Shown here: piece after piece, positions 6,291 through 21,833 of the stretch
How the letters are laid out: every line of letters starts with the position of its first letter
Position numbering within the stretch: position 1 is the first letter of the stretch
Source: Candidatus Deferrimicrobium sp.
Lineage (GTDB): Bacteria; Desulfobacterota; Deferrimicrobia; Deferrimicrobiales; Deferrimicrobiaceae
Direction of reading: 5' to 3'
DNA length: 64,000 nt
Assembly: GCF_036396855.1 (NCBI RefSeq)
Contig: NZ_DASWKA010000030.1
Coordinates: 12,103-76,102 of the forward strand
Program-made: the position numbers and the translations under genes
The notes under the pieces: generated by a model
What the model saw: only the letters and a program-made list of their open reading frames with translations
What the model was told of the DNA's origin: nothing
The model's database searches: none

Positions 6291-6924
6291 CGCGTTCGGG
6301 CTTTATCTCGTCATGACCGACCCGGTGGTCGGATACGAGGCGTGCGCGGAAGCGGCGGTCCGGTGCGGCGTTCGGTATCTCCAGCTCCGGATGAAGGGGG
6401 CGCCCCCGGATGCCGTTCTCCAAACCGCCCTGCGCGTGCGCGAGATCACCCTCGGCAGCGACACCCTGTTCATCGTCAACGACGACGTGACGATCGCGCG
6501 CGATGCGGACGCCGACGGGGTCCACCTCGGTCAGCACGACCTGCCGATCGCCGAGGCGCGGCGCCTGTGGACCGCGCCGGGCAAGCGTTTCGGCCTTTCG
6601 ACGCACAATGAGCGGGAGGCGCTCATCGCGTCGCGCCTGTCGCCCGATTACATCGGGGTCGGACCGGTGTTCGCCACCCCGACCAAGGCGATCCCCGACC
6701 CGGTCCTCGGCACCGACCGGATGGGATCGATCATCCGATCGGTCCCGGTGCCGGCCGTCGCCCTTGGCGGGATCGACCTCGGGAATCTCGCGGAGGTCCT
6801 CCGCAGCGGCGCCCGGAACTTCTGCGTCGTGCGCGCGGTCACCCGCCGCCCGGATCCGGAGACCGCGATCCGGGAGTTGCAGGAGATCTGGCGGCAGGAA
6901 ACGGGAGCCGGCCTGGAGATTTGA
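6283..6924 (+). CDS. thiE: Thiamine-phosphate synthase ThiE
   Basis: ORF 6271..6924. ATG at 6283 has a GGAGG 5 nt upstream. Motifs LYLVMTD, YLQLRMK, DGVHLGQ and GVGPVFATPTK are present. Confidence 0.9.
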   Translation: MDDAFGLYLVMTDPVVGYEACAEAAVRCGVRYLQLRMKGAPPDAVLQTALRVREITLGSDTLFIVNDDVTIARDADADGVHLGQHDLPIAEARRLWTAPGKRFGLSTHNEREALIASRLSPDYIGVGPVFATPTKAIPDPVLGTDRMGSIIRSVPVPAVALGGIDLGNLAEVLRSGARNFCVVRAVTRRPDPETAIRELQEIWRQETGAGLEI

Positions 6925-6949
6925 AATCTTGTCGCGGGTTTGTTTTTCG

Positions 6950-6995
6950 TTGAACAAAGTACGCAAGTTTCTCCCCTCTCTCACCGATATTGAAT
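6950..6995 (+). promoter_or_regulatory. Conserved upstream element L1 (TTGAAC-AAAGTACGCAAGTT-N14-CCGATATTGAAT)
   Basis: A 46-bp element 33 bp upstream of the histidine kinase start. It recurs with the same spacing at 10543-10588. Confidence 0.5.
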
Positions 6996-7027
6996 CCGAA
7001 GGCAACCCATTCAGCGAGAGGATCCCG

Positions 7028-8938
7028 ATGGACCGGACAGCCGACAAACGCGCCTTCCGCAGCCCCGGCGCCTCCAAGGAGGAGCGAAAACGGCTTCGTG
7101 CCGTTTTCGACCTTTCCGGCGACGCCATCTTCCTCATCGACGGAGGGGGGCGTTTCCTCGATGTCAACCAGGTCGCCTGCGAACGCTACGGCTATGCCCG
7201 GGACGAGATGCTGCGGCGGCACGCGGGCGATTTAAACGTCCCGGAGCATGCCCCGCACTACGAGGGTCGGATGGCAACGCTCCGACGCGACGGCGCCGTC
7301 ATCTTCGAGACGGTGCACCAGGCGAAGGACGGCCGGCGTATCCCCACGGAAATCAGCTCGAGGCTCATCCGCGGGGGAGGCCCGGACTTCATCATCAGCG
7401 TCTGCCGGGACATTACGGAGAGGGTGAAGGCGGAGGAGGAGCAGCAGATCTTCAAGTCCCTCGTTGAGAACAGCACCGATCTCATCGGGATCGCCTCGCT
7501 GGACGGGAAGGTCTTCTACCTGAACAAGGCCGGCCTGAAGCTCGTCGGTCTGGACAGCCTGGGAGAAGAACGGAGAAGGAGGATTCAGGACTTCGCCCTG
7601 GAAAAGCACTTTAAACCGTTGCAGGAGATGCTTGCGTCTCTCTCGAAAGAGGGGACGTGGAAGGGCGAGGCAAGGATTCGTGACTTCATTACGGGGACGC
7701 CGATTCCGGTCGAGATCCACGGGTTCGCCATCAGGGACGACAAGACCGGGCAGCCGATCGCCCTCGCGGCCATCGTTCGGGACATCTCGGAGCGGAAAAA
7801 ACTGGAAGAGGAGATGGCGAGGGGCGACAAGCTGAATTCGATCGGCATCCTTGCCGGGGGGATCGCACACGATTTCAACAACCTCCTGACGGCGATCTTC
7901 GGGAACATCACGCTGGCGAAGATGTACGCGAACCGCCGGAGCGAGGTGTACAAGCGGCTGGAGGAATCCGAGAAGGCGGCGGAACGGGCGAGAGACCTGA
8001 CCCACCAGCTGTTGACGTTTTCGAAGGGCGGAGCGCCCGTCAAGAGGACGATCTCTCTTCAGGAACTGGCGAAGGAGTCGGCGAACTTCGTCCTGCGGGG
8101 ATCCAACGTCAAGTGTGAGTTCTCGTTTCCCCCCGACCTTTGGCACGTGGAGGCGGACGAAGGACAGATCAGCCAGGTGCTCAACAACATCATCATCAAC
8201 GCCACCCATGCGATGCGCGAGGGGGGGACCGTGCAGATGCACTGCGGGAATGTGGTCGTCGAACAGAGCGACCCGCCGCTGGCGAAGGGCAAATACATTT
8301 TGATTTCCATCATGGATCACGGGACCGGGATCACGAAGAAGCACCTGTCGAAGATCTTCGATCCCTATTTCACGACGAAGAAGAAGGGCAGCGGTCTTGG
8401 GCTGTCGACCAGCTATTCCATCGTCAGGAGCCATGGCGGGCATATAACGGCCGAATCCTTCCCGGGGATCGGCACGACCTTCAAGATTTACCTGCCGGCC
8501 TCCGGGGAGGGAATGCTGCTCCCGTGCGCCGAAGACGCACTGTTTGTCACGGGGAAGGGGAGAATCCTGGTGATGGACGACGAGGAGGCGGTCCGGGATG
8601 TCGCCCGGGGCATGCTGGAGGCCCTCGGCTACTCGGTGACGCTTGCGAAAGACGGGACGGAAGCGATTGATTTCTATAAAGCGGCGATGGTGGACGGAGA
8701 GCCGTTCGATTCGGTGCTCATGGATCTTACGATACCGGGCGGCATGGGCGGCATGGAAGCGGTGAAGAGGATCCTTGAATTCGACTCGAAGGTGAAAGCG
8801 ATCGTTTGCAGCGGATATTCCAACGACACGATCATGGCGAACTACAACAGCTTCGGTTTCCGCGCCGTCGTTCCCAAACCTTACAGCCTGAAGCAATTAG
8901 GCGGAGCCATCAGCGAAGTCCTCTCAGCGCCGCAGTAA
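7028..8938 (+). CDS. Hybrid sensor histidine kinase (PAS-PAS-HisKA-HATPase-REC)
   Basis: ATG at 7028 with a GAGAGGA RBS, inside ORF 6503..8938. It has two PAS-like segments, an H-box GGIAHDFNNLL, N/G boxes (NNIIINATHAM, DHGTGI, GSGLGLS) and a C-terminal receiver (ILVMDDEE...LMDLTIPGGMGG). Confidence 0.9.
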   Translation: MDRTADKRAFRSPGASKEERKRLRAVFDLSGDAIFLIDGGGRFLDVNQVACERYGYARDEMLRRHAGDLNVPEHAPHYEGRMATLRRDGAVIFETVHQAKDGRRIPTEISSRLIRGGGPDFIISVCRDITERVKAEEEQQIFKSLVENSTDLIGIASLDGKVFYLNKAGLKLVGLDSLGEERRRRIQDFALEKHFKPLQEMLASLSKEGTWKGEARIRDFITGTPIPVEIHGFAIRDDKTGQPIALAAIVRDISERKKLEEEMARGDKLNSIGILAGGIAHDFNNLLTAIFGNITLAKMYANRRSEVYKRLEESEKAAERARDLTHQLLTFSKGGAPVKRTISLQELAKESANFVLRGSNVKCEFSFPPDLWHVEADEGQISQVLNNIIINATHAMREGGTVQMHCGNVVVEQSDPPLAKGKYILISIMDHGTGITKKHLSKIFDPYFTTKKKGSGLGLSTSYSIVRSHGGHITAESFPGIGTTFKIYLPASGEGMLLPCAEDALFVTGKGRILVMDDEEAVRDVARGMLEALGYSVTLAKDGTEAIDFYKAAMVDGEPFDSVLMDLTIPGGMGGMEAVKRILEFDSKVKAIVCSGYSNDTIMANYNSFGFRAVVPKPYSLKQLGGAISEVLSAPQ

Positions 8939-8988
8939 CCGCCACGAAGGAAAACGCCCCCTTCCGGGGGCGCGGACATTCGTGGCGG
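8939..8988. terminator. Compound GC hairpin between convergent genes
   Basis: Outer inverted repeat ccgccacgaa(8939-8948)/ttcgtggcgg(8979-8988) encloses cgccccc-ttcc-gggggcg (8955-8972). No clear U-tail. Confidence 0.45.
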
Positions 8989-9062
8989 TCCTGATGCACG
9001 TCCTCCTCCGGGACGGGTGCGGCCGATATGCTCCGCCAGGGTGCGCTTGACAGGCGCCCCAT

Positions 9063-9473
9063 TCACTTCGGCACGGTCGGGTACCCGGCCTGGACCCAGG
9101 CGTCCCATCCCCCCTTCAGCACGGAGACCTTCGTAAACCCTTTCTCGATCAGCCGGAGCGCCACACCGGCGCTCGTTTGCTCGTTGCTTCAGGCGCAATA
9201 CAGGATCATGGGCTTGTTCTTGGAGTACCGCTTCTCCCATCCCCCCACGTCGTTCGGCTCTTCCCGCACCGCCCCGGCGATCTTGCGTTCGCTCCCTGTC
9301 CAATCCCTCCCGCTCCGGACATCCACAATGACGATTTCCGGGTTGCCCAAACGCTGCTTGAGTTCCTCCTTCGTGATCCGGGGAGGCTCCGCCGCTGAAA
9401 CTTCCCAGGAAACCGGTAAGGATGCCAACAGGAGGAACATCGCTCCGTAAGCGGCAATCCTTCTCTTTTTCAT
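9063..9473 (-). CDS. Periplasmic single-domain rhodanese, probable selenoprotein (in-frame UGA at 9191-9189)
   Basis: ATG at 9473 with a GGGAGGAG RBS, and signal peptide MKKRRIAAYGAMFLLLASLPVSWEVSAA. The rhodanese fold reads ...IVIVDVRSGRDW...KPMILYCA-[TGA]-SNEQTSAGVALRLIEKGFTKVSVLKGGWDAWVQAGYPTVPK*. The frame stays open for 41 more codons after the TGA and completes the domain. Confidence 0.7.
9156..9174 (-). promoter_or_regulatory. SECIS-like hairpin
   Basis: On the mRNA strand the hairpin is GAGCGCC-GGUGU-GGCGCUC (7-bp stem, G-rich apical loop). It starts 14 nt after the UGA. Confidence 0.6.
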
Positions 9474-9625
9474 ATCTCCTCCCTCGTGACTCCCGCGCGT
9501 CCCCAAAAATACTATTTTCGCAGAAAACGGATCACGGTTTTCCTGGATACGGAGAATATATGACTCCGATCCCCGCGCTTGGAATCATGGAGGACGTGCG
9601 AAACGTTATAGGTGTTTCCTGTATC

Positions 9626-9640
9626 CTATATACTATATAG
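9626..9640. promoter_or_regulatory. Perfect 7-1-7 palindrome CTATATA-C-TATATAG in a divergent promoter region
   Basis: It lies in the AT-rich 210-bp spacer between the rhodanese (-) and carbonic anhydrase (+) genes. Candidate operator. Confidence 0.4.
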
Positions 9641-9715
9641 ACTATATTCTAGCCGCGTCAGGCCATGGCGGGACCGGGGCCATGAATCTCACTGCCGGCT
9701 GCGTAAGGAGCGGCT

Positions 9716-10375
9716 ATGACGAAATCGACCACGGATCGGTATCTGGAAAACAACAAGCAGTATGCGGGCGGGCAGACGATACACAAGCCCTCTTACCCTG
9801 GAAAGCTGCCGATTCACCCGGCCAGGCGCGTGTCGGTCGTGGCCTGTATGGATGCGCGGCTTGACGTCGAGGACCTGCTCGGCCTGCAGACCGGCGACGC
9901 GCACATCATCCGCAACGCCGGTGGCGTGGTGAGCGACGATACGATTCGCTGCCTCATCGTCTCGCATCATCTGCTGGACACAAATGAGATCCTCCTGATT
10001 CACCATACCCGCTGCGGCATGCTCGCCTTCACGGATGATTTGCTCAAAGCCGGCCTGGAGGGAGACCCGGCGGCCGGGAAACTGCTTGCTCAGGCGACGG
10101 GGCGCGCTTTCACGAGCTGCAAGAAATCCGCGGCGATGCCGTCCGCGTTCCACGCCTTCCGCGGCCAGATCGAACCGCTCGATGCTCCGCGCGACGCGAA
10201 GCAAACGGAACGCCTCGAGTGGGACGTGCGGCGGGGGATGTCTTCGATCCTGAACCATCCGTGGATCCCGACCGGCGGGCCGGACGCGGTCACTGTGCGC
10301 GGATTCATCTACGACGTGGATACCGGGAAGCTGGAGGAAGTGGGCTATCCGGGGCCCATGGGATCGATCCGATAA
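9716..10375 (+). CDS. Beta-class carbonic anhydrase family protein
   Basis: 219-aa ORF with an AAGGAG RBS. Zn-ligand motifs are VVACMDARL and HHTRCGM. The C-terminal [14 protein letters not shown] is typical of the small beta-CA clade. Confidence 0.85.
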
Positions 10376-10389
10376 CGGCGGTCCCAGTG

Positions 10390-10524
10390 CCCCCGAAGGG
10401 GGTACCCCAGGGAGCGCGTTATATCCGGGAGTGGGGCGGGGGAACCCCGCTCTATGAACGGCAGGTAATATGCGTGGCGGTCCCAGCGGGGTTCGAACCC
10501 GCGTTTTCGCCTGGGAGGGCGCCG
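10390..10524. repeat. Repeat copy A: 85-bp R element plus a 3' fragment of tRNA-Glu
   Basis: 10475-10511 is identical to the 3' 37 nt of the tRNA-Glu gene at 21755-21791, with degenerate similarity to about 10524. 10390-10474 is homologous to 15465-15552. Confidence 0.8.
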
Positions 10525-10542
10525 ACGTACGATTACGGGAAT

Positions 10543-10588
10543 TTGAATAAAGTACGCAAGTTATAGCACCATCCTACCGATATTGAAT
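10543..10588 (+). promoter_or_regulatory. Conserved upstream element L2 (copy of L1)
   Basis: TTGAAT-AAAGTACGCAAGTT-N14-CCGATATTGAAT, with the same 46-bp geometry as 6950-6995. Confidence 0.5.
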
Positions 10589-10619
10589 GGGAAGCTTATC
10601 CCATGACGGGAGGAACCCG

Positions 10620-10766
10620 ATGGCCCGAAAGGCAGACCGGCACGTCCCCGGCGGACCCCGCGCTTCCATGGAGGAGCTGGAACGGCCCCGCTCCGTCGTT
10701 CCGAAACCTTGCAGCCTGAAGCAATCGGGCGGGACCATCAGCGCTGTTCTCTCGGCGCCGCTTTGA
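10620..10766 (+). pseudogene. Collapsed relic of a paralog of the 7028..8938 histidine kinase (48 codons, still in frame)
   Basis: The relic reads MARKADRHVPGGPRASMEELERPRSV|VPKPCSLKQSGGTISAVLSAPL*. The kinase at 7028..8938 has N-terminus MDRTADKRAFRSPGASKEERKRLRAV and C-terminus VVPKPYSLKQLGGAISEVLSAPQ*. DNA similarity is visible on both sides, and the relic is preceded by the L2 leader. Confidence 0.6.
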
Positions 10767-10787
10767 TGCCCCGGGTGAATTGATCGG

Positions 10788-12785
10788 ATGGCCCACCAGC
10801 ACGTCGTCAGCGACTACATGGAGCACGGCGCCTGCTTTTCCTGGGAACCGGGACTTGTAGCGCTCCACGTCATCTCCGACATCGTAACCGGCATCGCGTA
10901 CTTTTCCATCCCCGCCGCACTGTTCTACTTCGCTTACAAGCGGCGGGACCTTCCCTTCCACGGCGTAATTCTCCTCTTCGGGATTTTCATCCTGGCGTGC
11001 GGGACCTCCCATTTCCTGGCGGCCTATACGGTATATGTCGCCGACTACTGGATCGAAGGGGGGGTGAAGGCGTTTACGGCGTTGATCTCGGCGGTGGCCG
11101 CCTTTTACATGATCCCCCTGATCCCCGATGCCATCGCGATGCCCAGTTTGACGAAGTCATTGAAACAGAACAAGGAGCTGAACGCGCAACTGGAAAGAAA
11201 ATTGGACGAACTGAACGGGAAAACCCGGGAACTCATGGAAACCAACCGTGAACTGAACCTCAGCGAAAGCCGTTTCCGAGTGCTGGTCGAGCATGCCCCG
11301 GACGCCATCGTCGTGTACGACGCAACGCAGAACAGGTTCGTGGACGCCAATGCCAATGCGGATCGTCTTTTCGGATGCAGTCGCGAGGAGCTCCTGGCAT
11401 CCGGACCGCCGCGGTTTTACGCATCGGCGCAGCCGGATGGGTTTCCCCCCGCTGAGAGCATGGAGAAGATGATCGAACGGGCCCTGGCCGGAGAAACATT
11501 GCTGTTCGAGCGAGCGGTGCACAACGCGGAAGGGAAGGATCTTCTTTGCGAGGTGCGGCTGGCACGATTGCCTTTTACGGATCGCAACCTGATGCGCGGC
11601 AGCTTCATCGACATCACCGAACGGAAGAAACTGGAGGAACGGTTGCGCCAGTCGCAGAAGATGGAGTCGGTCGGAAGGCTTGCGGGGGGCATCGCCCACG
11701 ACTTCAATAACCTCCTGACGGTGATCACCGGGTACAGCGAGCTCATGCTGAGCCAGCTTGAAGAGAGGTCGCCGCTGGTCAAGGAAGTGGAGGAAATCAA
11801 GCGGGCCGGCGAGCGGGCATCGTCGCTTACGCAGCAACTTCTTGCGTTCAGCCGACGCCAGGTGCTGCAGCCGAGGGTGATCGACCTGAACGAGGTGGTC
11901 TCCCGCGTGGAGAAAATGCTCCGCCGGTTGATCGGGGAGGACGTGGAGCTCCGGACGGTCCCGGGTGCGGGGCTGTGGAGCGTAAAGGCCGACCCGGGTC
12001 AGATCGAGCAGGTCCTGGTCAACCTCGTGGTGAACGCAAGGGATGCGATGCCCGGCGGCGGGGTGCTCACCATCGAGACGGGCAACGTGTTTCTCGACGA
12101 GGAATATTCCCTCGGGCATCTCCCCGCGCAGTCCGGCCATTACGTCATGCTCGCCGTCAGCGACACGGGAGTGGGGATGGACGAGAGGACGAAGTCGCAG
12201 GTCTTCGAGCCCTTCTTTACGACGAAGGAATCGGGGAAGGGGACGGGGCTCGGGCTCTCCACCGTATACGGAATCGTCAAGCAGAGCGGGGGCTACATCT
12301 GGGTGTACAGCGAGCCCGGCAAGGGATCGACGTTCAAGGTCTACATTCCGCGCACGGAGGAGCGGGAGGATGGTCCACGCAAGGCGGTCCCGCCTGTCGA
12401 GGATCTTCGCGGGGAGAAAACCGTTCTCATTGTCGAAGACGAGGAATCGATTCTGAAATTGTCCTGCGCCGTTCTCGGTGGATACGGGTACGCGGTTCTT
12501 GCGGCGCGCGGCGGGGAGGATGGCCTTCGGATCGCCGGGAAGCACGAGGGGGAGATCAGCCTGCTCCTGACCGATGTGGTCATGCCCGGGATGGGGGGAA
12601 GGGAGTTGTACGAGCGGATTCTGCAGCAGCGACCGAAGATCAAGGTCCTTTACATGTCCGGCTATACGGACAAAGCGATCGTTCGCCGGGGTGTGCTGGA
12701 TCCGGGGACGTCTTTCCTGCAGAAGCCTTTCTCGCCGATTTCCCTGGCCCGGAAAGTGAAGGAGGTCCTTGAACCCCGGGCGTAA
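10788..12785 (+). CDS. Hybrid histidine kinase with N-terminal ethylene-binding-domain-like membrane module (EBD-PAS-HisKA-HATPase-REC)
   Basis: 665-aa ORF. Residues 27-120 align without gaps to Arabidopsis ETR1 helices 1-3 (ISD, IAYFSIP, FG.FI..CG..H, IP). After that come a coiled coil, a PAS domain, the H-box GGIAHDFNNLL, an ATPase domain and a receiver. Confidence 0.9.
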   Translation: MAHQHVVSDYMEHGACFSWEPGLVALHVISDIVTGIAYFSIPAALFYFAYKRRDLPFHGVILLFGIFILACGTSHFLAAYTVYVADYWIEGGVKAFTALISAVAAFYMIPLIPDAIAMPSLTKSLKQNKELNAQLERKLDELNGKTRELMETNRELNLSESRFRVLVEHAPDAIVVYDATQNRFVDANANADRLFGCSREELLASGPPRFYASAQPDGFPPAESMEKMIERALAGETLLFERAVHNAEGKDLLCEVRLARLPFTDRNLMRGSFIDITERKKLEERLRQSQKMESVGRLAGGIAHDFNNLLTVITGYSELMLSQLEERSPLVKEVEEIKRAGERASSLTQQLLAFSRRQVLQPRVIDLNEVVSRVEKMLRRLIGEDVELRTVPGAGLWSVKADPGQIEQVLVNLVVNARDAMPGGGVLTIETGNVFLDEEYSLGHLPAQSGHYVMLAVSDTGVGMDERTKSQVFEPFFTTKESGKGTGLGLSTVYGIVKQSGGYIWVYSEPGKGSTFKVYIPRTEEREDGPRKAVPPVEDLRGEKTVLIVEDEESILKLSCAVLGGYGYAVLAARGGEDGLRIAGKHEGEISLLLTDVVMPGMGGRELYERILQQRPKIKVLYMSGYTDKAIVRRGVLDPGTSFLQKPFSPISLARKVKEVLEPRA

Positions 12786-13032
12786 GAACGTCACCGGATC
12801 CCGGCAGCCCGTCGGCCGCGGGAAGTGGTAATTTCTGTTGTTATCCCGTGATTGCGAATACAATGAAGCACTGGTGACAGGTATTGTTGGGTGAGAGGAG
12901 AAGGATCTGACTCTGCCCGCGGCAAATCGTACCTTCCGTCCCCTCCCCGACGCATACAGCAAGCTCGCATCCCTCTTTGGAGCGGCCACCGCAGCGCTCG
13001 GGATCCTTGGTTTATCGGGCTGGATCCTCGGG

Positions 13033-15396
13033 ATGCCCCTGCTCGCGGGCATCCGATCCGCTTATATCCCGATGGCTCCCATCACCTCGATCGCCCTGGC
13101 TTGCCTCGGGGGGCTGCTCCTCGTTATCTCGGTGGGCCCCTCGCAAGGTTTGGTGGGCATGCTCGCAGTCGTGATTTCCGCGCTCATTTCGGCATACGGG
13201 CTGATCGAGCTCGTGGAAGCCCTGGGAATCCCCTTACTCTCCCTGGAAGAACGGCTGTTTCCCCATCCTCCGATGGTGGGTGCGATCCCCACCGGCCGCA
13301 TGTCACCGACAACGGCGGGTCTCCTGCTCCTCGCGGGAGCGGTTGTCCCGTTGCACTCTCTCCGCGAGCGGGGAGGGGAGCGCCGGAAGCTTCTCGGAGA
13401 CCTGGCCGGGTGTCTGGGGATTCTCGTGGCGATGGGCGGGATGGTGGTCGTCCTGAGCTATCTGCACGGGACCCCTCTTCTGTATGGCACCCTGACGATT
13501 CCGATGGCGGCTACGACCGCGCTCGCGTTCCTGTTGCTGGGAACGGGGCAGCTCCTCGCGATGGGACCGGACGGGTTCCCGTCGAGGCTGTTCTCGGGGC
13601 ATTCGGTCCGGGCCAGGCTTCTCCGGGCGTTCGTCTCGACCACGGTCGGTGTCGTGGTGGCGATCGACCTGTTGCACGTCTATGCCCGTGGAGTTTTCTT
13701 CGAAGACAACGCAATCCTGTCCGGTGTTTCCGCCACGGCCGTCGCCGTGATAACGGGTGCGCTGATCGCAAGAGTGGCCTTGAAGGTCGGCGACGACATG
13801 GACCGTTCCGAAGAAATCCGCAGGGAGGCGGAGGACAAACTTCGCGAGAGCGAGGATCGGTATCGGGACCTTGTGGAGCACAGCCAGGACCTCATCTGTA
13901 CGCACGATCTGGAGGGTCGCATCCTCTCCGCGAATCCGTGGGCTGCAACGATCCTGGACTACGCCCCGGAGGAGTTGTTGCGAATGAATTTCCGCGAACT
14001 TCTCGTGCCGGAAGTTCGTCATGAGTTCGAAAGATACCTGGAAAAGATCAGGATGCATGGCACCGCGCGGGGCCTGATGCGGGTTCAGACGCGCAATGGC
14101 GACCGGCGCCTCTGGGAATACAAGAACACCTTGCGTACGGAAGGATTGGCGGAACCGATCGTCCGCGGGATGGCGCATGACGTCACCGAGAGCAAGCGGG
14201 CGGAGGCGGAAAAGCGGAACCTGGAAGAGCAGGTCCGGCGGACGCAGAAGCTGGAGAGCCTGGGCGTGCTGGCCGGCGGGATCGCGCACGACTTCAACAA
14301 CATCCTGATGGCCGTGCTGGGGCACGCCGAGCTGGCCCTCGCCGAAATATCCCCGATGTCCCCCGCCCGCCGGAACATCACCGAGATCGCGACCGCGGCG
14401 CGCCGTGCCTCCGAACTGTGTCGGCAGATGCTGGCGTACGCCGGCAAGACGTCCATCGCGTTGGAGCGGGTGGTGCTGCGGGATCTGGTCGAGGAGATGG
14501 CGCACCTGCTCAAGACCGCGATCTCGAAGAAGGCGATCCTTAACCTGAACCTGGAGCGGGGCCTTCCGCCGATCGAGGCGGATCCGAGCCAGATCCGGCA
14601 GATCGTAATGAACCTGATCATCAACGCCTCGGAAGCGATCGGGGACCGGAGCGGGGTGGTCACCGTATCGGTGGGCGCGACGCGTTGCGACGAGGAGTAC
14701 CTGAGCAGGACGGAACTTCGGGAGACGCTGGCGCCCGGGCTGTACCTCCACCTGGAGGTGGCGGATACCGGCTGCGGGATAGGCGAGGAGACGCGATTGC
14801 GAATCTTCGAGCCGTTCTTCTCCACCAAGTTCACGGGGCGGGGACTGGGACTGGCCGCCGTCCTGGGGATCGTCCGGGCGCACAAGGGGGCGCTGAAGGT
14901 GTACAGCGAACCCGGGAAGGGTACGACGTTCAAGATCCTCTTCCCGGCGACGGAAGGACCGGTGGAGGGAGCACGGACCATCGAGCCCGCCCCGCTGGCC
15001 GACTGGCGGGGGAAGGGGACGATCCTGCTGGTGGACGACGAGGAGAGCCTGGTCGCCCTGGGGGCGCGGATGTTGGAGCACCTGGGCTTCACCGTACTGC
15101 TGGCGTCGGACGGCCTGCAGGCGGTGGAGCTGTACCGGGAACGGGGGAAGGAGATCGACATGGTGCTGATGGACCTGACGATGCCGCACATGGACGGCGC
15201 GGAAGCATTCGGGGAGCTGCGCCGGCTGAACCCCGCCGTCCTGGTGGTCCTCGCCAGCGGGTACAGCCACGAAGACGTGGCGTCCCGCTTCGCGGGGAAG
15301 GGTCTCAACGGGGTGTTGCAGAAGCCGTATTCCCTTCTCAAGCTCCGGGAATCGCTCGCCGGATTGTTGCCGAAACGACAGGAGGGGGATGCGTGA
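13033..15396 (+). CDS. Hybrid histidine kinase with a multi-TM N-terminal sensor (TM-PAS-HisKA-HATPase-REC)
   Basis: 787-aa ORF with several hydrophobic helices in the first ~250 aa. It has a PAS domain, the H-box GGIAHDFNNIL, an ATPase domain and a receiver (ILLVDDEES...LMDLTMPHMDG). The frame is open upstream to 12895 (see findings). Confidence 0.9.
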   Translation: MPLLAGIRSAYIPMAPITSIALACLGGLLLVISVGPSQGLVGMLAVVISALISAYGLIELVEALGIPLLSLEERLFPHPPMVGAIPTGRMSPTTAGLLLLAGAVVPLHSLRERGGERRKLLGDLAGCLGILVAMGGMVVVLSYLHGTPLLYGTLTIPMAATTALAFLLLGTGQLLAMGPDGFPSRLFSGHSVRARLLRAFVSTTVGVVVAIDLLHVYARGVFFEDNAILSGVSATAVAVITGALIARVALKVGDDMDRSEEIRREAEDKLRESEDRYRDLVEHSQDLICTHDLEGRILSANPWAATILDYAPEELLRMNFRELLVPEVRHEFERYLEKIRMHGTARGLMRVQTRNGDRRLWEYKNTLRTEGLAEPIVRGMAHDVTESKRAEAEKRNLEEQVRRTQKLESLGVLAGGIAHDFNNILMAVLGHAELALAEISPMSPARRNITEIATAARRASELCRQMLAYAGKTSIALERVVLRDLVEEMAHLLKTAISKKAILNLNLERGLPPIEADPSQIRQIVMNLIINASEAIGDRSGVVTVSVGATRCDEEYLSRTELRETLAPGLYLHLEVADTGCGIGEETRLRIFEPFFSTKFTGRGLGLAAVLGIVRAHKGALKVYSEPGKGTTFKILFPATEGPVEGARTIEPAPLADWRGKGTILLVDDEESLVALGARMLEHLGFTVLLASDGLQAVELYRERGKEIDMVLMDLTMPHMDGAEAFGELRRLNPAVLVVLASGYSHEDVASRFAGKGLNGVLQKPYSLLKLRESLAGLLPKRQEGDA

Positions 15397-15464
15397 CGTC
15401 TCTCATGCAGGGATCCCACCGGGAAGCCGGTCCAAGAGGGCGTTGACCCTCTCCCTTTTCCTTC

Positions 15465-15600
15465 CCCCCGAAGGGGGTACCCCTGGGAGCGCGATATATC
15501 CGGGAGTGGGGCGGGGGGGAACCCCGCTATATAAACGGCAGGCGGTTATTCGTGGCGGTCCCAGCGGGGTTCGAACCCGCGTTTTCGCCGTGAGAGGGCG
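15465..15600. repeat. Repeat copy B: 88-bp R element plus the 3' 48 nt of tRNA-Glu (attL-like)
   Basis: 15553-15600 is identical to 21755-21802 (tRNA-Glu from its 3' end into the anticodon loop). 15465-15552 is homologous to 10390-10474. Confidence 0.85.
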
Positions 15601-15688
15601 TTAAATAGCCCTTTCAGCATCATCCCGCATAACGTCCCATCGAAGTAGTACCCTACAGAATGTACTGAATTATAACCGTTAATAACGC

Positions 15689-16570
15689 TTGACGGTAACA
15701 CCGAACTGGGCGATCCGCACGGAATTCTCCCTCCTCCACGGCCGGGCGTTCCGAAGTCTTAAACGGATCACGACCGTGAAGGCCCTCTTTTACTTCTACG
15801 AAAAGCGCGTCGTGAAGGTGGACAAGCGGAAACGTGGCGATAAGCGATTCCAGGTCCAGCACGACGCGGAGATCAAGTTTTCCTACAAGGAAGCAGAGCA
15901 GCGGGGACTGACGCGAAAGCGGTTCGCGCAGGCGATCCGGGATCTTCATGCGGCCGGATTCATCGACATCCTCTATCGCGGCAGCGGGGCGCTGAAAGAT
16001 AGTTCCACCTATCGGTTGAGTGAACGGTGGAGGCGGTTCGATACTCCGGACTTCAAGGCCCAGGACATTCCCCTGCGTCTCCGGGAAGAACCGACGAAGA
16101 ATCTGGAACACGACGAAAAAGGAAGGTGGACCCGGGAAGAGGAAAAACCTCAAGTGGTCGAAATGCCCCTTGCTCAAGGGTCAAAACGTCCACTTGAGAT
16201 AACCGTACAAGGGTCAAACCGTCCACTTGAAAGGGGCGATTTCGACCAATCTTCAAGGGTCATAACGTCCACTGAACTAAGTACTACCAGGGGTAGCACT
16301 CGGATTCGGACTGTGAAGAAGGTTAAAAGAAAGACTCGGACCCGCGGTCACGGTTCAAAAGCTATCGCGGCCCCATTGAAAACGAAAATTCGACCCGCTG
16401 CAATTCCTACATGGCCGGATCAAAGCAAGGTACTCGACCTATGCGACAAGCTCCTCCTCGACTCCCTGGAGCGGTTCGGGGATGACGGCCGACCTCACCC
16501 CGAGATGGAGACGGCGCGGAACCTTATCAAGATCATCAACCGGGCGGTGGGAAGCGAGGCGGTGAACTGA
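15689..16570 (+). CDS. Phage/plasmid-type DNA-binding, replication-initiator-like protein
   Basis: 293-aa ORF (TTG start). The N-terminal pattern TPNWAIR...FRSL...AKALFYF...SYKEAEQRGLTRKRFAQAIRDLHAAGFI is typical of winged-helix proteins of integrative elements. The gene contains three iterons. The functional call is inference. Confidence 0.5.
   Translation: MTVTPNWAIRTEFSLLHGRAFRSLKRITTVKALFYFYEKRVVKVDKRKRGDKRFQVQHDAEIKFSYKEAEQRGLTRKRFAQAIRDLHAAGFIDILYRGSGALKDSSTYRLSERWRRFDTPDFKAQDIPLRLREEPTKNLEHDEKGRWTREEEKPQVVEMPLAQGSKRPLEITVQGSNRPLERGDFDQSSRVITSTELSTTRGSTRIRTVKKVKRKTRTRGHGSKAIAAPLKTKIRPAAIPTWPDQSKVLDLCDKLLLDSLERFGDDGRPHPEMETARNLIKIINRAVGSEAVN
16175..16275 (+). repeat. Three direct 22-23-bp iterons (CAAGGGTCAAAACGTCCACTTGA)
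   Basis: Copies at 16175-16197, 16208-16230 and 16254-16275 lie inside the rep-like ORF and encode the repeated QGSKRPLE/QGSNRPLE. Confidence 0.75.
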
Positions 16571-16788
16571 TGAGCACAAAGGAAACCAACACCATGATCA
16601 CCACGGTGGACACGATCACGATCACCGATCCTGACCCGTGCCGGGCTACCCGGTGCGATATGCAGGACAGTCCCACGTCGGCGTGTCGTAAGAGGGGCTG
16701 CGGCTTCGAGTGGAGCAAAACAGCCCGGCTCGACCGCAAGGCGAGGGAAGAGAAGGACAGGAAGGTGAGGGAGAACGTATGCCGATGA
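16570..16788 (+). CDS. Small Cys-rich hypothetical protein
   Basis: 72-aa ORF whose ATG overlaps the upstream stop by 1 nt. It has several Cys (CRATRCD...CRKRGCG). No recognisable family. Confidence 0.4.
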   Translation: MSTKETNTMITTVDTITITDPDPCRATRCDMQDSPTSACRKRGCGFEWSKTARLDRKAREEKDRKVRENVCR

Positions 16789-17126
16789 AGCCGAGGAAGC
16801 CGTGCAAGGGTCCACTCTGTCCGGGTCTGACATCAACGAAGTATTGCGACCGGCACGCCCACCTCGAACAGCAGGACAAGGCGAGATGGGATGCACGGCG
16901 CGGGAGCGCAAAGGAACGCGGGTACGGAGGATCCTGGTCAGCGGCCCGGCTGATGCACCTTCGGAATAGCCCGCTCTGCTACGACTGCGGCAGGCCCGCC
17001 ACGCTGGTCCACCATATCGTACCTATCAGCGAAGGCGGGCCGCGGCTCGACATGGACGGGCTGATGAGCTTATGCGTCGGATGCCACGGCAAGCGGCACG
17101 GCAACGATGCGAGGGCGAAGGGATGA
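16779..17126 (+). CDS. HNH endonuclease (phage packaging-associated type)
   Basis: ATG at 16779 follows GGTGAGGGAG. Motifs are CYDCGRPATLVHHIVPISEGG...LMSLCVGCHGKRH (HNH/zinc finger). It lies just upstream of the small terminase gene. Confidence 0.8.
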   Translation: MPMKPRKPCKGPLCPGLTSTKYCDRHAHLEQQDKARWDARRGSAKERGYGGSWSAARLMHLRNSPLCYDCGRPATLVHHIVPISEGGPRLDMDGLMSLCVGCHGKRHGNDARAKG

Positions 17127-17268
17127 ACCGTAACTCCTTGCTATGGAAGGAGATACCGGGGCGGCCTTCGATCATACCCAATGATGCCCCACGACCGACC
17201 GGTGAGGTGGAAACGCGTGAGACCCGCCGCGAACGAGAATTGGCAATTTCAAAAAGGAGATTTTGGCG

Positions 17269-17616
17269 ATGACAGCGACCTCTCGTAAAGCTCCCCGGGC
17301 TCCCGGTCACCTCTCCAAGCCCGCCCGGAAATGGTGGTCGGGCGTCATGGAGTGCTACGAGATCGAGGAGCACATGATCCAGACGGTGACAGCGGCGGCG
17401 GAGGCCTGGGACCGGAAGGAGATGGCCCGGGAGATCCTCGGCAAGGAAGGATTGACCATCGACTGCCGGGACGGGAAGAAAACGCATCCCGCCGTCGGGA
17501 TCGAGCGGGACAGCAGGCTCGCCTACCTCCGGGCCGTCCGCGAGCTGTGTTTATCCGCCGAAGATCCGGAGGATTCCCGCTCGCCGGGACTTCGCTACCC
17601 CGGGAGGAGGTATTAA
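17269..17616 (+). CDS. Phage terminase small subunit, P27-like
   Basis: ORF 17263..17616 with ATG at 17269 after AAGGAG. The sequence pattern (PGHLSKPARKWW...EEHMIQTVTAAAEAWDR...GLTI...GKKTHPAV...RDSRLAYLRAVRELCL) resembles the P27 small-terminase family. Confidence 0.65.
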   Translation: MTATSRKAPRAPGHLSKPARKWWSGVMECYEIEEHMIQTVTAAAEAWDRKEMAREILGKEGLTIDCRDGKKTHPAVGIERDSRLAYLRAVRELCLSAEDPEDSRSPGLRYPGRRY

Positions 17617-17618
17617 AA

Positions 17619-17834
17619 ATGCCGATCAAGAAAAAACTGGCACGTAAGGTTCCGCGGCCCGCTCCGCTGAAGCCGGATGTGTTTCCCCTTCTCCAAACCG
17701 GCGAGGAGATTGATTGGTTCGCCTTCGACCTTTCGTATGGTGACAATGCGCGTGAACTATTCGAACGTGTCCGGGGCGACTACCCCGCGGGGACGTTCCC
17801 GTGGGCGGAGCAGAGATTCGGGCGGGCGGGCTGA
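17619..17834 (+). CDS. Hypothetical phage-like small protein
   Basis: 71 codons with a strong GGGAGGAGG RBS. It is tightly packed after the small terminase gene. Confidence 0.5.
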   Translation: MPIKKKLARKVPRPAPLKPDVFPLLQTGEEIDWFAFDLSYGDNARELFERVRGDYPAGTFPWAEQRFGRAG

Positions 17835-17836
17835 CG

Positions 17837-18091
17837 ATGCCGACACGTTTACGAACTGGAAAACGTTCATCCCGCTTAGGCGGACTTTCCGAGGTTGCGT
17901 ATCGTTATTTCGGCGAAGGACCGTTTTTCGAGGCGGAGAGATTCGAGCAGCAGACCTCGCCGGCGGAGCGTGCCGGGATTTGGAGGGCGCACCGGGCCGC
18001 GATCATCGAAAGATGGCGCGTCGAAAACCCTGCAAACATCGACCTGGGAACCTGGGGCGAACACCTGGAGGGGGCCGCACATGCCAACTAA
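17837..18091 (+). CDS. Hypothetical small protein, paralog 1 (MPTRLRTGKR...)
   Basis: ATG lies 2 nt after the upstream stop. It shares the N-terminus and a W..HR..I..RW motif with the next gene. Confidence 0.5.
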   Translation: MPTRLRTGKRSSRLGGLSEVAYRYFGEGPFFEAERFEQQTSPAERAGIWRAHRAAIIERWRVENPANIDLGTWGEHLEGAAHAN

Positions 18092-18398
18092 GCTACGGAC
18101 GGGAAAACGACAGACGCGGCTCTCCGAGGACCGCATGGCGCACCTGGTATCGGGGACGTGCCTGGACTCCCCCGTCCGCTGGCACTCCCGGCTGCATTAC
18201 CCCTTCAAGGATGAGAAGCACCGCCGGGCCGTCTGGTTCCAGCACCGCGAGGAGATTGTCGCCCGATGGGGGCCGGTTGAGCTGTTGCAGGCGTGGGCGG
18301 ACTACGAGGCGACGGAGGAGCAGAAGGCGGCCTTCGATCATTCCGGTACGCCGAACCCGTTCCGGACCTACCAGCAGGAGGAAGCCGATGCCGACTGA
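18081..18398 (+). CDS. Hypothetical small protein, paralog 2 (MPTKLRTGKR...)
   Basis: ATG at 18081 overlaps the upstream gene by 11 nt. It carries the motif VWFQHREEIVARW. Confidence 0.5.
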   Translation: MPTKLRTGKRQTRLSEDRMAHLVSGTCLDSPVRWHSRLHYPFKDEKHRRAVWFQHREEIVARWGPVELLQAWADYEATEEQKAAFDHSGTPNPFRTYQQEEADAD

Positions 18399-18645
18399 CC
18401 GTGACAAGTTACTCGCCGATTTCGTAACGGCTGCGCTTGAACTGATGAAGGAAGGGCTCTCCGGGCTCAACGTCGAGAAGGCGTTTCACGTCTCCCGGGC
18501 GCAACAGATGGGCGCGGATGTCGTTTTGGTTTTTGCTCCCGGCGCCGGGACCGTGGTCGGGTGTCTCCATTTTCCCGACCCGGACGCCGATACGCCGGAG
18601 CTTTTCCGGATCGTGGTCCCCTTTCCGGAAGGGGTGTCGAATTGA
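18388..18645 (+). CDS. Hypothetical small protein
   Basis: 85 codons. The ATG overlaps the upstream stop (ATGCCGACTGA). Confidence 0.45.
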   Translation: MPTDRDKLLADFVTAALELMKEGLSGLNVEKAFHVSRAQQMGADVVLVFAPGAGTVVGCLHFPDPDADTPELFRIVVPFPEGVSN

Positions 18646-18864
18646 TTTCCTCCCTTCGCTTCTCATGCGTCGGGAAGATGAACCTGTTTCACCTGGCGCG
18701 GATCGCCGACGAGAGTGCGGCCCTCCGCTTTCATCCCATCAACACGCGCTCGCATGGCGACCACGGCGAGAGAACGAAGGCGTCACGGCGCGCAAACCCA
18801 TCAACACGGTGGGCAAATTCAGATAGCTTTGTGAACCGACAATTAAATAACGAAAGGATTCGTC

Positions 18865-20133
18865 ATGCCATACAAAACGATCAAGGCCGAAATCGCGTCT
18901 ATGGGCGGCTTGATTTCGGAGCTTCGCGAGAAAGCCCAGCACTTCAACAGACCGCTCACCGCGAAAGAATCGGCGCTCTGCGCCGATGCGGAGCTCAAGA
19001 TCAACGAACTCCGGATGGAACTTCCCGCGAATGAACCGCTGACCCTCCAGGGGCCGGGCGGCGGCTCGCCCCGGGCCATCAGCGGGGGCAGCAATACCGG
19101 CGGCTTCGAGAGCGTCGGCGAGATCATGCAGGCCCTCTACCGGCGCTCCAAGGGCGAGGGGATGGATCCCCGGCTCGAACCGCTCCAGGTGCGGGCGGGG
19201 ATCAATGAAACGGTCCCGAGTCAGGGAGGATTCGCGGTTCCGGAGCAGCTCATCTACAAGGCCTTCACGGAAGACCTCCAGGACACGGTGCTCCTGCAAC
19301 TGTGCGACAAGGTGACAATGACCAGCGACAAGCTGGGCGTCCCGATTTTCGGGGACGACTCGCACTCCACCTCGGCTCCCTTCGGGATCACCTGGGACCA
19401 GATCCCCGAGTCCGGCACCTTCGGCGACTTCCAGTCGGTCCCCTTCAAGAAGCTGCAACTTCACGCCTACAAGTCCGGGGCGCTTTTCTCCGCGTCGAAC
19501 GAATGGCTCTCCGATGCGGATCCCGCCATGCGCGCCCGGCTGGAGAACATCTTCCAGGCGTCTTTGCGGTGGTACGTCGAAAGCAAGCTGTGGAACGGAA
19601 CGGGGGCGGGCCAGGCGCTCGGGGCGCTCAATGGCGACGGGGCGCTCGAAATCCCGAAGGAGACGGGCCAAACCGCGGACACGATCATGACGGAGAACAT
19701 CGTCAAGATGTGGGCGCGGCTCCGGCCGGGATCCCACAACCGGGCAATATGGGCGGCGAATCCGACGACGTTTCACATGTTGGCAACTTTGGCTGTTTCA
19801 ATTGGGACCGGAGGGAGCGTGGTTTCTCTTCTTCAGCCCTCCGGGATCGCGGGGGCTCCGGCAACCTCGATCCTCGGGCGGCCGCTCTACCTCTCGGAAC
19901 ACCTCCCGGCGCTCGGGGATGCGGGCGACATCTGCCTCCTCGACCCCATGCTGTACGTCCTTGGGGACCGGAAGCAGATCACCGTGGATGCCTCACCTCA
20001 CATCAGATTTCAATATGACGAGACGGCGTTCCGTGTTCAATCCAGATTCGACGGCCAACCCGCGCTCTCTTCGGTCCTGACTCCGGCCAATGGCGACACG
20101 TGCGCCTGGCTCGTGAAGATCGCGGCGAGGTGA
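18865..20133 (+). CDS. HK97-family phage major capsid protein homolog
   Basis: 422-aa ORF with an AAAGGA RBS. An N-terminal coiled-coil/scaffold-like segment precedes a body typical of HK97-type capsid proteins (...VPSQGGFAVPEQL...LPALGDAGDICLLDP..Y...R). Confidence 0.8.
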   Translation: MPYKTIKAEIASMGGLISELREKAQHFNRPLTAKESALCADAELKINELRMELPANEPLTLQGPGGGSPRAISGGSNTGGFESVGEIMQALYRRSKGEGMDPRLEPLQVRAGINETVPSQGGFAVPEQLIYKAFTEDLQDTVLLQLCDKVTMTSDKLGVPIFGDDSHSTSAPFGITWDQIPESGTFGDFQSVPFKKLQLHAYKSGALFSASNEWLSDADPAMRARLENIFQASLRWYVESKLWNGTGAGQALGALNGDGALEIPKETGQTADTIMTENIVKMWARLRPGSHNRAIWAANPTTFHMLATLAVSIGTGGSVVSLLQPSGIAGAPATSILGRPLYLSEHLPALGDAGDICLLDPMLYVLGDRKQITVDASPHIRFQYDETAFRVQSRFDGQPALSSVLTPANGDTCAWLVKIAAR

Positions 20134-20151
20134 TGATCCGAACTTCCACCC

Positions 20152-20173
20152 GGGGGCGGCTTCGGCCGCTCCC
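20152..20173 (+). terminator. UUCG-tetraloop hairpin after the capsid gene
   Basis: gggggcggc-ttcg-gccgctccc forms a 9-bp stem including one G.U. The U-tail is weak. Confidence 0.45.
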
Positions 20174-20541
20174 TGCTTCCCCCTGCCGAGTAATTGCGGC
20201 GGGGCCGTCCCGAAAGGGGCGGGATACTGACCCGGCGTTTTCATACGGTTTCTCGCGATCGGTGACGCCTTCCCGTGCCGGGGCCGCCGCAAGGCGGTGT
20301 GATCGGGCAGGTGAAGCGGGCGCGGATCATCGCGAACCTCGGCATCCTTCCGGGCGACAGCAGCCCGCGGGAGTGCCCCGAAAGCGACCTCGTTCGTCGA
20401 GGGCCGTCGCGAGGCGGTAAATGGTGGAAAGGTCGCGAGCTGTGACGGGACGGGGGCATCACAGGCGGTCCTTCGGGGCCGCTTCCCCCTCCCCGGATCT
20501 TCGAGCAAGCATTACAACTTTGCGTTGTAACTCTCCCGGAG

Positions 20542-20907
20542 GTGTCACGATTGCCATCCTCTCCCCGCGGCTGGTTCTGTAGATCGACCTATACCCTCGA
20601 TGCGCAGGGGCGGCCCTTTTCGCCTCGGCTGGAATACACGGGATGGACGGATCGACGGATGAACGACTCCCGGGAGACGGCGCTGTCCGTGAAGATCATG
20701 GCGGAGCGGGCGTCTCATGCGGTATGCGGGAATGGTGTCGGGTACAAGCTGCTGTTGGACTACTATGCGGGCGAGGTGTCCTGGTGGAGCTTCACGGAAC
20801 CGGAGCAAGCGATCCTCCGGAAGACCATCCGGCATTTCTCGAAGGCGCTCCGCGAGGCGGGATTCCTACCGGATGACGATGGGCACGCATCCCGGGCGAG
20901 TCCTTGA
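20542..20907 (+). CDS. Hypothetical protein, possible island regulator
   Basis: 121-aa ORF. TTG at 20551 fits the GGAGG at 20538-20542 better than GTG at 20542. It is preceded by the palindrome TTACAAC-N5-GTTGTAA (20512-20530). Confidence 0.4.
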   Translation: MSRLPSSPRGWFCRSTYTLDAQGRPFSPRLEYTGWTDRRMNDSRETALSVKIMAERASHAVCGNGVGYKLLLDYYAGEVSWWSFTEPEQAILRKTIRHFSKALREAGFLPDDDGHASRASP

Positions 20908-21104
20908 ACGGTAACGCTCCCCGGCGTGCGGCCATCGGTGGGGGCTCTTGACGGCTTGCGGTGGATCGGCCCGCACCTCCCCCCAGGCGATCTCGCGGAT
21001 GGAAGAAGTTCCCTCCGGGAAAATCATCGAAGAAAGAAACTTCCTAACGGGAATATAAGTCCAATTTTGGAGTTTTATAAAATCCAGCCCAAGGGAGGCG
21101 GAAA

Positions 21105-21671
21105 ATGAAACGGTTCAATAGGTATCTCTCCAAAGCGATTTGTTGCGTGGTTCTACTGTTACCACTGGCCTTCATCGGTGCGGGTCAGGCGGTAGCGGCA
21201 CCGGCTACACCGAATGTAAATGTCGTCAATACACCGACTGTACTTGTCGGAAATACTCCATTGCCGGTGTTTGACGTAGACAACCCTGCGAGTCAGCCTT
21301 TCCAGGCATCTGCACAATTTACGATGAGTGGGATTGGGCCAGTATTCAGCGTTACTTCCGACATTACTGTTGTACCTGCTGGAAAGATGCTTGTGATTGA
21401 GCATGTCACTTTTATTGGCGCAACGGGGTCGCCGGGGAAAATAGGAGCGAGTATCTCAAACTCAATAGCTGGTCCGGGAAGGACTCATTGGTTGGTATTA
21501 ACAGAGCAAGGCGCTCTATTTGGTACTCCTGCTTTCATGGCAAATCAACCGATGCGTTTGTATGCCGGCCCCGGGACAACAGTTCGAGGTCATGCCTTTC
21601 GCAGCATAGATTCAATTGATGCAAGCGCGGGCGCATTTAGCATCTCTGGACATTTTGTCGATATTCCATAG
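21105..21671 (+). CDS. Secreted hypothetical protein, AT-rich cargo gene
   Basis: 188-aa ORF with an AAGGGAGG RBS and signal peptide MKRFNRYLSKAICCVVLLLPLAFIGAGQAVAA. It is visibly AT-richer than everything around it. Confidence 0.6.
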   Translation: MKRFNRYLSKAICCVVLLLPLAFIGAGQAVAAPATPNVNVVNTPTVLVGNTPLPVFDVDNPASQPFQASAQFTMSGIGPVFSVTSDITVVPAGKMLVIEHVTFIGATGSPGKIGASISNSIAGPGRTHWLVLTEQGALFGTPAFMANQPMRLYAGPGTTVRGHAFRSIDSIDASAGAFSISGHFVDIP

Positions 21672-21713
21672 GGAAGGTGTTATGAGTACCGTTATGAGTG
21701 AGGCGTAAAAGAG

Positions 21714-21746
21714 AAGGGGTTTTCGGCATATAACCGAAAACCCCTT
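21714..21746. terminator. Bidirectional intrinsic terminator
   Basis: A 13-bp stem aaggggttttcgg/ccgaaaacccctt with a 7-nt loop is T-rich on both sides. It serves the cargo gene (+) and the tRNA operon (-). Confidence 0.7.
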
Positions 21747-21754
21747 TGATTTCG

Positions 21755-21830: not shown

Positions 21831-21833
21831 GGC

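Follow-up and report, generated by a model that had tools for sequence, protein, structure and literature searches.

The window analysed here is a 64,000-nucleotide stretch of contig NZ_DASWKA010000030.1 from an assembly of Candidatus Deferrimicrobium sp. (GCF_036396855.1), and the gene in question is located on its forward strand at 10788-12785. It encodes a hybrid histidine kinase of 665 amino acids (AA), whose layout was read as ETR1_N-coiled coil-PAS-HisKA-HATPase_c-REC from the open reading frame (ORF) list, the Pfam matches and the secondary structure of an AlphaFold2 model. The start codon is kept among the orthologs. A domain with three transmembrane (TM) helices covers residues 23-117 (10854-11138) according to Pfam, hydropathy and the model. 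It is followed by a coiled-coil-like helical linker between TM3 and the PAS domain (residues 122-152, 11151-11243), which was modelled as a helix with low confidence, and by the PAS domain itself (residues 162-280, 11271-11627), which is supported by Pfam PAS_4/PAS_9 and by modelled strands and helices at residues 173-275. The kinase core at 11673-12356, identified with Pfam, a motif scan and Foldseek, consists of HisKA (296-358) and HATPase_c (402-523), and the protein ends with a receiver domain (residues 546-657, 12423-12758; Pfam Response_reg and motif scan) that contains D596 and K646. The fusion to PAS, HisKA, ATPase and receiver domains given in a preliminary description of the sequence is therefore matched by the Pfam domains in that order. 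The motif scan also found the phospho-acceptor H304 in HDFNN and intact N, G1, F and G2 boxes. Judged by this motif content, with H304, the four boxes, D596 and K646 all present, the signalling output of the kinase is predicted to be competent.

The preliminary description had proposed that the N-terminal domain is an ethylene-binding domain of the plant type. The profile comparison places it in this family: ETR1_N (PF25487, 'Ethylene receptor 1-like, N-terminal domain') matches residues 23-117 with profile positions 2-96 of 97, an E-value of 4.3e-33 and 113.9 bits, compared with a curated gathering cut-off of 27 bits, and the Cys/His pair is aligned. In the scan of the whole genome, the domain scored 118.5 bits and was present as a single copy. 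NCBIfam provided no model covering the ethylene-binding domain. In addition, the domain was compared by BLASTP with residues 1-141 of Arabidopsis ETR1, a query sequence that is not a database record, which resulted in 32 % identity over 109 residues and an E-value of 9e-18.

All of the previously listed residue equivalences hold in this alignment, namely D31=D25, Y38=Y32, I41-P42=I35-P36, C71=C65 and H75=H69, and I68=I62 and K94=K91 are kept beyond that list, as is P113=P110. The codon positions given for the metal-binding pair were also correct, with TGC at 10998-11000 encoding C71 and CAT at 11010-11012 encoding H75. Both residues are Cu(I) ligands by homology and lie one helical turn apart on TM2, aligned with Cys65 and His69 of ETR1. 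The gap-free alignment with a constant offset of +6 over helices 1-3 could be retained for helices 1 and 2 only, as the offset in helix 3 is +3 because of a three-residue gap in the loop between TM2 and TM3.

Work by Wang et al. in 2006 is said to have identified Asp25, Tyr32, Ile35, Pro36, Ile62, Cys65 and His69 as the ETR1 residues required for binding. The equivalents of all seven (D31, Y38, I41, P42, I68, C71 and H75) are present in the window protein. Seven residues are needed for ethylene binding according to alanine scanning in ETR1, as cited in PMC11819568. To place these positions in the wider family, an alignment of 82 rows was used, in which the window copy and ETR1 were combined with 80 loci of many phyla. 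C16, D31, Y38, I41, C71, H75, K94 and P113 are invariant in all 82 rows, and two further columns are nearly so, with Ile at the position of I68 in 80 rows and Pro at that of P42 in 74. Since the binding residues are invariant or nearly invariant across these rows, the pocket of the window protein can be described as canonical, with nothing remodelled. The alignment further indicates that the pair of D31 (GAC, 10878-10880) and K94 (AAG, 11067-11069) is present and invariant. In ETR1, Asp25 supports the affinity for Cu(I) and ethylene, and Lys91 forms a polar bridge to Asp25 and couples binding to signal transmission via TM3 (PMC10266040).

The cysteine ahead of TM1 noted in the preliminary description is C16, which aligns with Cys4 of ETR1. 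It is part of the predicted periplasmic N-terminal motif YMEHGACFSWEPG (residues 10-22, 10815-10853), in which H13 is kept in 81 of the 82 rows. A single N-terminal cysteine is a feature of bacterial ethylene receptors (PMC6682694), and the window protein accordingly has one cysteine within a bacterial HGxC motif, whereas ETR1 has two cysteines. Across the window copy and loci L005-L084, the segment before TM1 follows the nearly invariant pattern (Y/F)M(E/P)HGxC(F/Y)xW(E/N)PG, of which plant ETR1 has only the cysteine. It is a speculative thought that this predicted periplasmic cluster of Met, His and Cys serves as a copper hand-over site, beyond a disulfide.

The hydropathy profile has hydrophobic cores at approximately residues 30-41, 62-76 and 100-112. 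The first loop is basic (AYKRRDLPFH, including KRR) and the second is acidic. Because of the basic first loop, the positive-inside rule places the N-terminus outside and the C-terminus inside, as in ETR1, and the outside location of the N-terminal motif was derived from the same rule. The AlphaFold2 model, calculated from 25 orthologs with a mean predicted local distance difference test (pLDDT) score of 72, comprises helices at 21-51, 58-81 and 87-116, the linker at 122-152, a PAS fold, a DHp hairpin at 277-354, a CA domain and the receiver. A Foldseek search with the full-length model found matches in the cytoplasmic part only, for example the LOV/PAS kinase 4gcz and the DHp-CA structure of CckA, 5idj.

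Among the known receptors, AzoEtr1 of Azospirillum brasilense Sp7 is the nearest tested relative. Its residues 1-130 bind 14C-ethylene saturably, and AzoEtr1 also signals (PMC11819568). Locus L084 was recognised as AzoEtr1, since its translated N-terminus MFGGVEAF... matches the cloning primer printed in that publication. The window domain is 46 % identical to AzoEtr1 over 121 residues without any gap (E-value 4e-43). Both proteins combine a three-helix ethylene-binding domain with PAS and histidine kinase domains and have the seven binding residues in common. However, AzoEtr1, with 525 AA, lacks a fused receiver, and the gene for a response regulator lies next to its own, whereas the window kinase has a fused receiver and no adjacent regulator. 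The hosts also differ, AzoEtr1 being from a root coloniser and the window protein from a wetland iron reducer, and the binding that was shown experimentally for AzoEtr1 is a prediction for the window protein.

SynEtr1 (slr1212) of Synechocystis sp. PCC 6803 and GeiEtr1/2 of Geitlerinema are similar to the window protein in their single N-terminal cysteine and histidine-kinase phosphotransfer, and GeiEtr2, like the window kinase, has a PAS domain and a C-terminal receiver (PMC6682694). SynEtr1, which was likened to the window protein by description only, additionally contains a cyanobacteriochrome light sensor, and the cyanobacterial domains are found on other branches of the domain tree than the window copy. 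In the two-gene modules of AzoEtr1 with AzoRR and of SynEtr1 with slr1213, the regulator gene adjoins the receptor, while at the window locus there is none and the receiver is fused. Arabidopsis ETR1, a member of subfamily 1, shares the Pfam family, the Cu(I) ligands, Asp25, Lys91, an N-terminal cysteine and the combination of kinase and receiver. Apart from the low identity and the loop between TM2 and TM3, which is three residues shorter in the window protein, it differs in that a GAF domain takes the place of the PAS domain and that plant output proceeds via CTR1/EIN2 and not via a phosphorelay.

Taken together, the gene probably encodes a membrane-bound hybrid histidine kinase with a canonical ETR1-type ethylene-binding input that senses ethylene through Cu(I), and it is probably an accessory, horizontally exchanged module and not part of the core genome. 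The family assignment is secure, and the ethylene-sensing function is a well-founded prediction from the alignments. The steps of a possible mechanism can be outlined by homology to ETR1, SynEtr1 and AzoEtr1. The protein would form a dimer, perhaps through the periplasmic C16, and each monomer would hold one Cu(I) on TM2 between C71 and H75, polarised by D31 of TM1. Ethylene would diffuse into the membrane and bind to Cu(I), and the D31-K94 bridge could then relay the signal to TM3, from where the linker helix and the PAS domain would carry it to the DHp helix. This would alter autophosphorylation at H304, after which the phosphate may be transferred to D596 of the fused receiver, on to an Hpt protein and finally to a response regulator.

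Several points weigh against this interpretation. Ethylene binding and signalling are only predicted, both for the window protein and for its clade of Nitrospirota, Geobacteraceae, Pelobacteraceae and Deferrimicrobium members. The TM part of the monomer model has a pLDDT of only 65-76, and no solved structure of an ethylene-binding domain with which its geometry could be checked was found when the 130-residue domain was searched against the PDB (E <= 10) and with Foldseek. Furthermore, there is no stand-alone response regulator or Hpt gene adjacent to the kinase, whose neighbours are a gene relic, a second kinase, a carbonic anhydrase and a phage-satellite-like island; the genome has two Hpt-domain genes, both on other contigs. 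Finally, small unsaturated molecules other than ethylene could also be bound at the Cu(I) site.

This last point leads to the alternative that has most in its favour, in which the domain is genuinely of the Cu(I)-binding ETR1_N type but reports CO, acetylene, a longer alkene, an isocyanide, or the availability or redox state of copper. Weak responses to CO, acetylene and propylene are also known for sites of the ETR1 type. The clade consists of iron- and sulfur-cycling, mostly anaerobic lineages in which ethylene binding is a prediction, and the additional invariant His-Gly-x-Cys ahead of TM1, found in bacterial members and not in plants, could handle copper. Nevertheless, every ethylene-binding residue of ETR1 is kept and no pocket residue is remodelled, and AzoEtr1 with its 46 % identical domain binds ethylene saturably. 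A ligand other than ethylene is therefore considered unlikely, and ethylene sensing is preferred.

The novelty claimed in the preliminary description is not supported. It stated that functional bacterial ethylene receptors had so far been characterised in cyanobacteria, but this premise is outdated because AzoEtr1 was shown in 2025 to bind ethylene. The domain is catalogued in Pfam, and its bacterial spread, its variable outputs and one functional receptor from outside the cyanobacteria have already been published. Putative ethylene receptors with many output types are described for further bacterial phyla in passages of PMC11819568 and PMC7700396. A literature search on ethylene receptors in Deltaproteobacteria, Nitrospirae or Geobacter found no publication on the clade of the window protein. 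Of some interest are the lineage of the host, the presence of the canonical pocket among bacteria of anoxic soils, and the clear evidence of module exchange.

The spread of the domain was assessed at several levels. A phmmer search with the 130-residue domain against 1.84 billion cluster representatives resulted in 7,820 matches at E <= 1e-3, 5,292 at E <= 1e-10 and 280 at E <= 1e-30, and a scan of one genome per prokaryote species found at least 582 loci encoding relatives of the domain. Cyanobacteriota, Acidobacteriota, Gemmatimonadota, Verrucomicrobiota, Alphaproteobacteria, Nitrospirota, Geobacteraceae, Pelobacteraceae and others are represented among the matches listed. In the closer vicinity of the host, the domain is rare. 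The survey of related genomes found ETR1_N in 3 of 28 genomes of the genus, including that of the window (2 of the 27 others), and in none of the genomes of nine other genera of the family or of the seven sister-family genomes. In an even sample of the phylum, 2 of 301 genomes exceeded the cut-off, the window's own and one of 300 others.

A maximum-likelihood tree calculated for the domain places the window copy in a clade with a support of 100/96, together with Nitrospirota (Thermodesulfovibrionales, Dissulfurispiraceae), Geobacteraceae (Geomonas, Oryzomonas), Pelobacteraceae and 'delta' metagenome-assembled genomes (MAGs). This clade groups with Alphaproteobacteria, including Azospirillum, but only weakly (93/98, drawn as unresolved), and a second copy from the Deferrimicrobiaceae (L038) is found elsewhere in the tree, among Acidobacteriota. 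The scattered pattern of tree and distribution indicates horizontal acquisition. The GC content at third codon positions is 0.79 in the ethylene-type kinase gene, compared with 0.85-0.90 in the genes for GlnRS, ThiH and GltX.

Orthologs with 83-98 % identity are present in other MAGs, and an undisrupted frame of 665 codons was seen in several strains and species, at 83-100 % identity. The ortholog in genome G017, with 83 % identity at the protein and 85 % at the DNA level, is placed elsewhere in its genome, between AHSA1/CDF-efflux genes and sdh, and its homology to the window ends 5-13 nt from the ends of the ORF. In G003 (L089, G003:C215, 2-1957, reverse strand), only the nucleotides corresponding to 10783-11230 of the window are common to both, at 87 % identity. 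This stretch contains the binding domain and the start of the linker, ends within the linker helix and is joined in G003 to four or more PAS domains. Among the proteins P0020, P0023, P0065 and P0102 and other relatives, those with 82-88 % identical binding domains have extra PAS or GAF domains, and more distant ones have HD-GYP-type or SpoIIE phosphatase outputs.

A broader interpretation would join two statements. The first is that the clade of the window copy, with Deferrimicrobium, Geobacteraceae (Geomonas, Oryzomonas), Pelobacteraceae, Thermodesulfovibrionales and Dissulfurispiraceae, represents a sensor dedicated to ethylene, by which bacteria that cycle iron and sulfur in anoxic soils and sediments would be tuned to ethylene from flooded roots or anaerobic microbial routes. 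The second is that the binding module of about 450 bp moves between genomes as a cassette and is re-fused to varied PAS, GAF and kinase outputs. That both apply at once is possible, but this combined view is tentative and somewhat doubtful.

The genomic context agrees with the earlier placement of the gene in an accessory segment next to a tRNA hotspot, given the variable interval between thiE and tRNA-Glu and the presence of the gene in only 3 of the 28 genus genomes. Three hybrid kinase genes lie in a row (6503-8938, 10788-12785 and 13033-15396), with the ethylene-type kinase in the middle. Upstream of it are genes for a rhodanese and a beta-carbonic anhydrase, and downstream are HNH and HK97-type capsid genes, followed by tRNA-Glu and tRNA-Gln at 21755-21907. 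ARAGORN identified these as tRNA-Glu(CTC) on the reverse strand at 21755-21830, the integration target, and tRNA-Gln(CTG) at 21834-21907. Two copies of the 3' segment of tRNA-Glu (repeat D2) lie on the forward strand: a diverged copy with 83 % identity at 10471-10522, which forms the left edge of a 5-kb block, and an exact copy (100 %) at 15549-15600, the scar of the insertion of a satellite-like, capsid-bearing island at 15601-21754. A mini-ORF of about 49 codons on the forward strand (10606-10769; repeats D3 and D7) is what remains of a collapsed paralog of the upstream kinase and ends 18 nt before the start codon of the ethylene-type kinase. It is called as a gene of 48-49 AA in L086, L103 and L104.

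The contig of a sister strain (L103) with 97 % DNA identity to the window clarifies the relationship between these elements. Its ethylene-type ORF is intact, and the order is kinase 1, rhodanese, carbonic anhydrase, tRNA-Glu fragment, 49-codon relic, ethylene-type kinase, kinase 3, tRNA-Glu, tRNA-Gln and GltX, with the tRNA-Glu fragment located directly after the beta-carbonic anhydrase gene. As this contig lacks the island and the second kinase of the block stands directly before tRNA-Glu, the capsid-bearing island must be a later insertion. The idea that the ethylene-type kinase is cargo of the satellite island was therefore rejected, the kinase pair adjoining tRNA-Glu in L103 without it. 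The gene belongs to an older 5-kb block between the tRNA-Glu fragment and the tRNA-Glu gene, in which no integrase is left. The interval between thiE and tRNA-Glu spans 14.8 kb in the window (6925-21754). In the 100 % complete genome G005 (L091, C5:90500-96500) it is only 1.6 kb long and contains one gene for a hypothetical protein of 231 AA; in G012 (L094, C8:1-4200) it contains a methyltransferase and an insertion sequence (IS) transposase (rve), and in G022 (L093, C3:45500-64000) a kinase lacking the binding domain and, after it, sdh genes.

This location could also mean that the gene is a functionless passenger, the decaying cargo of an old element at tRNA-Glu. It is flanked by a tRNA-Glu fragment on one side and tRNA-Glu on the other, no integrase remains, the 49-codon kinase relic is situated directly upstream, no partner regulator is nearby, and the gene was detected in only two of the 27 other genus genomes searched. 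In contrast, the full frame is intact across strains and species, the catalytic and ligand-binding residues are all kept, and the occurrence of the same module on varied intact outputs in close relatives points to continued use. A passenger without function is therefore very improbable, and a working sensor kinase is the preferred interpretation. Lastly, a chance resemblance of hydrophobic helices to ETR1, a general risk with TM segments and nothing more, is excluded on the alignment evidence by the match to the whole profile (E-value 4e-33), the BLASTP E-values for ETR1 and AzoEtr1, and functional polar residues in invariant columns.

The host genome is a 2.56-Mb MAG of 153 contigs with a completeness of 93 %. 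Its GlnRS is 89-90 % identical to proteins of Candidatus Deferrimicrobium sp. and Candidatus Deferrimicrobiota. The description of the host as non-photosynthetic is supported. The addition 'apparently anaerobic' was imprecise: due to its three genes for COX1-family (heme-copper) oxidases, the host is regarded as facultative and not strictly anaerobic. The lineage, MBNT15, has been described as a facultatively anaerobic iron reducer that is common in peat and in sediments rich in organic matter (PMC9386147). In other bacteria, ethylene is produced anaerobically by the methylthio-alkane reductase route (PMC13753814). No nitrogenase-like genes were found in the 93 % complete genome, so ethylene made by the host itself via this route is unlikely and was disfavoured as a source. 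The physiological signal is likely exogenous ethylene in wet, oxygen-poor soil or peat, originating from plant roots or microbial pathways.

Should the window protein prove to bind ethylene, the bacteria that sense this gas would come to include MBNT15/Deferrimicrobiota, facultatively anaerobic iron reducers of peat and sediment with no known plant partnership, and this would support the role of ethylene as a general gaseous cue in wet, oxygen-poor soils, beyond that of a plant hormone. It opens no new class of system, being a member of a large, partly characterised family. Its canonical pocket and simple architecture would make it a convenient bacterial representative of its clade.

The output half of the protein resembles CckA. 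Its DHp-CA part is 47 % identical to the Caulobacter CckA structure 5idj, and the best NCBIfam matches are CckA models, although these and the matches to other kinase models all score well under the respective thresholds. An identity as CckA was rejected, since the scores of 453 and 364 bits compare with an equivalog cut-off of 1000 (NF046020/NF046026). The kinase also differs from CckA in having an unrelated input domain and in being encoded by an accessory gene. Some orthologs are named CckA by JGI, and the annotations of named close relatives are only generic, for example 'PAS domain S-box protein' or 'CckA'. The DHp-CA core (11673-12356) is 46-48 % identical to Caulobacter CckA sequences, including the CA domain crystallised with cyclic di-GMP (c-di-GMP; 5idm).

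Further observations concern the surroundings of the gene. A promoter scan found no sigma-70-like site upstream of the kinase gene, which is uninformative. The leader-like element with the mini-ORF at 10543-10769 repeats the leader and the first and last codons of the upstream kinase (6950-7001/10543-10594; 8860-8933/10688-10761), and this element may supply the promoter for the ethylene-type kinase. The second hybrid kinase of the block (13033-15396, forward strand; ORF list and Pfam) comprises 787 AA, of which the N-terminal part of about 270 AA (13033-13850), with multiple TM segments, has no match in Pfam. It is co-located in L085 and L103, and in the latter, as in the window, it accompanies the ethylene-type kinase; in the contigs of G017 and P0016, a HATPase_c-REC protein of 332 AA follows instead. 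The beta-carbonic anhydrase gene (9716-10375) has no ortholog in the 27 other genus genomes (E <= 1e-40). Its 90 % cluster nevertheless has 211 members from metagenomes. It is another accessory gene of the hotspot. Lastly, a 66-nt repeat with 88 % identity is located at 10390-10455 and 15465-15530, beside two of the tRNA-Glu fragment copies. The upstream copy is absent from L103. In the strain of the window, the two att-like sites thus seem to have undergone recombination or gene conversion with each other.

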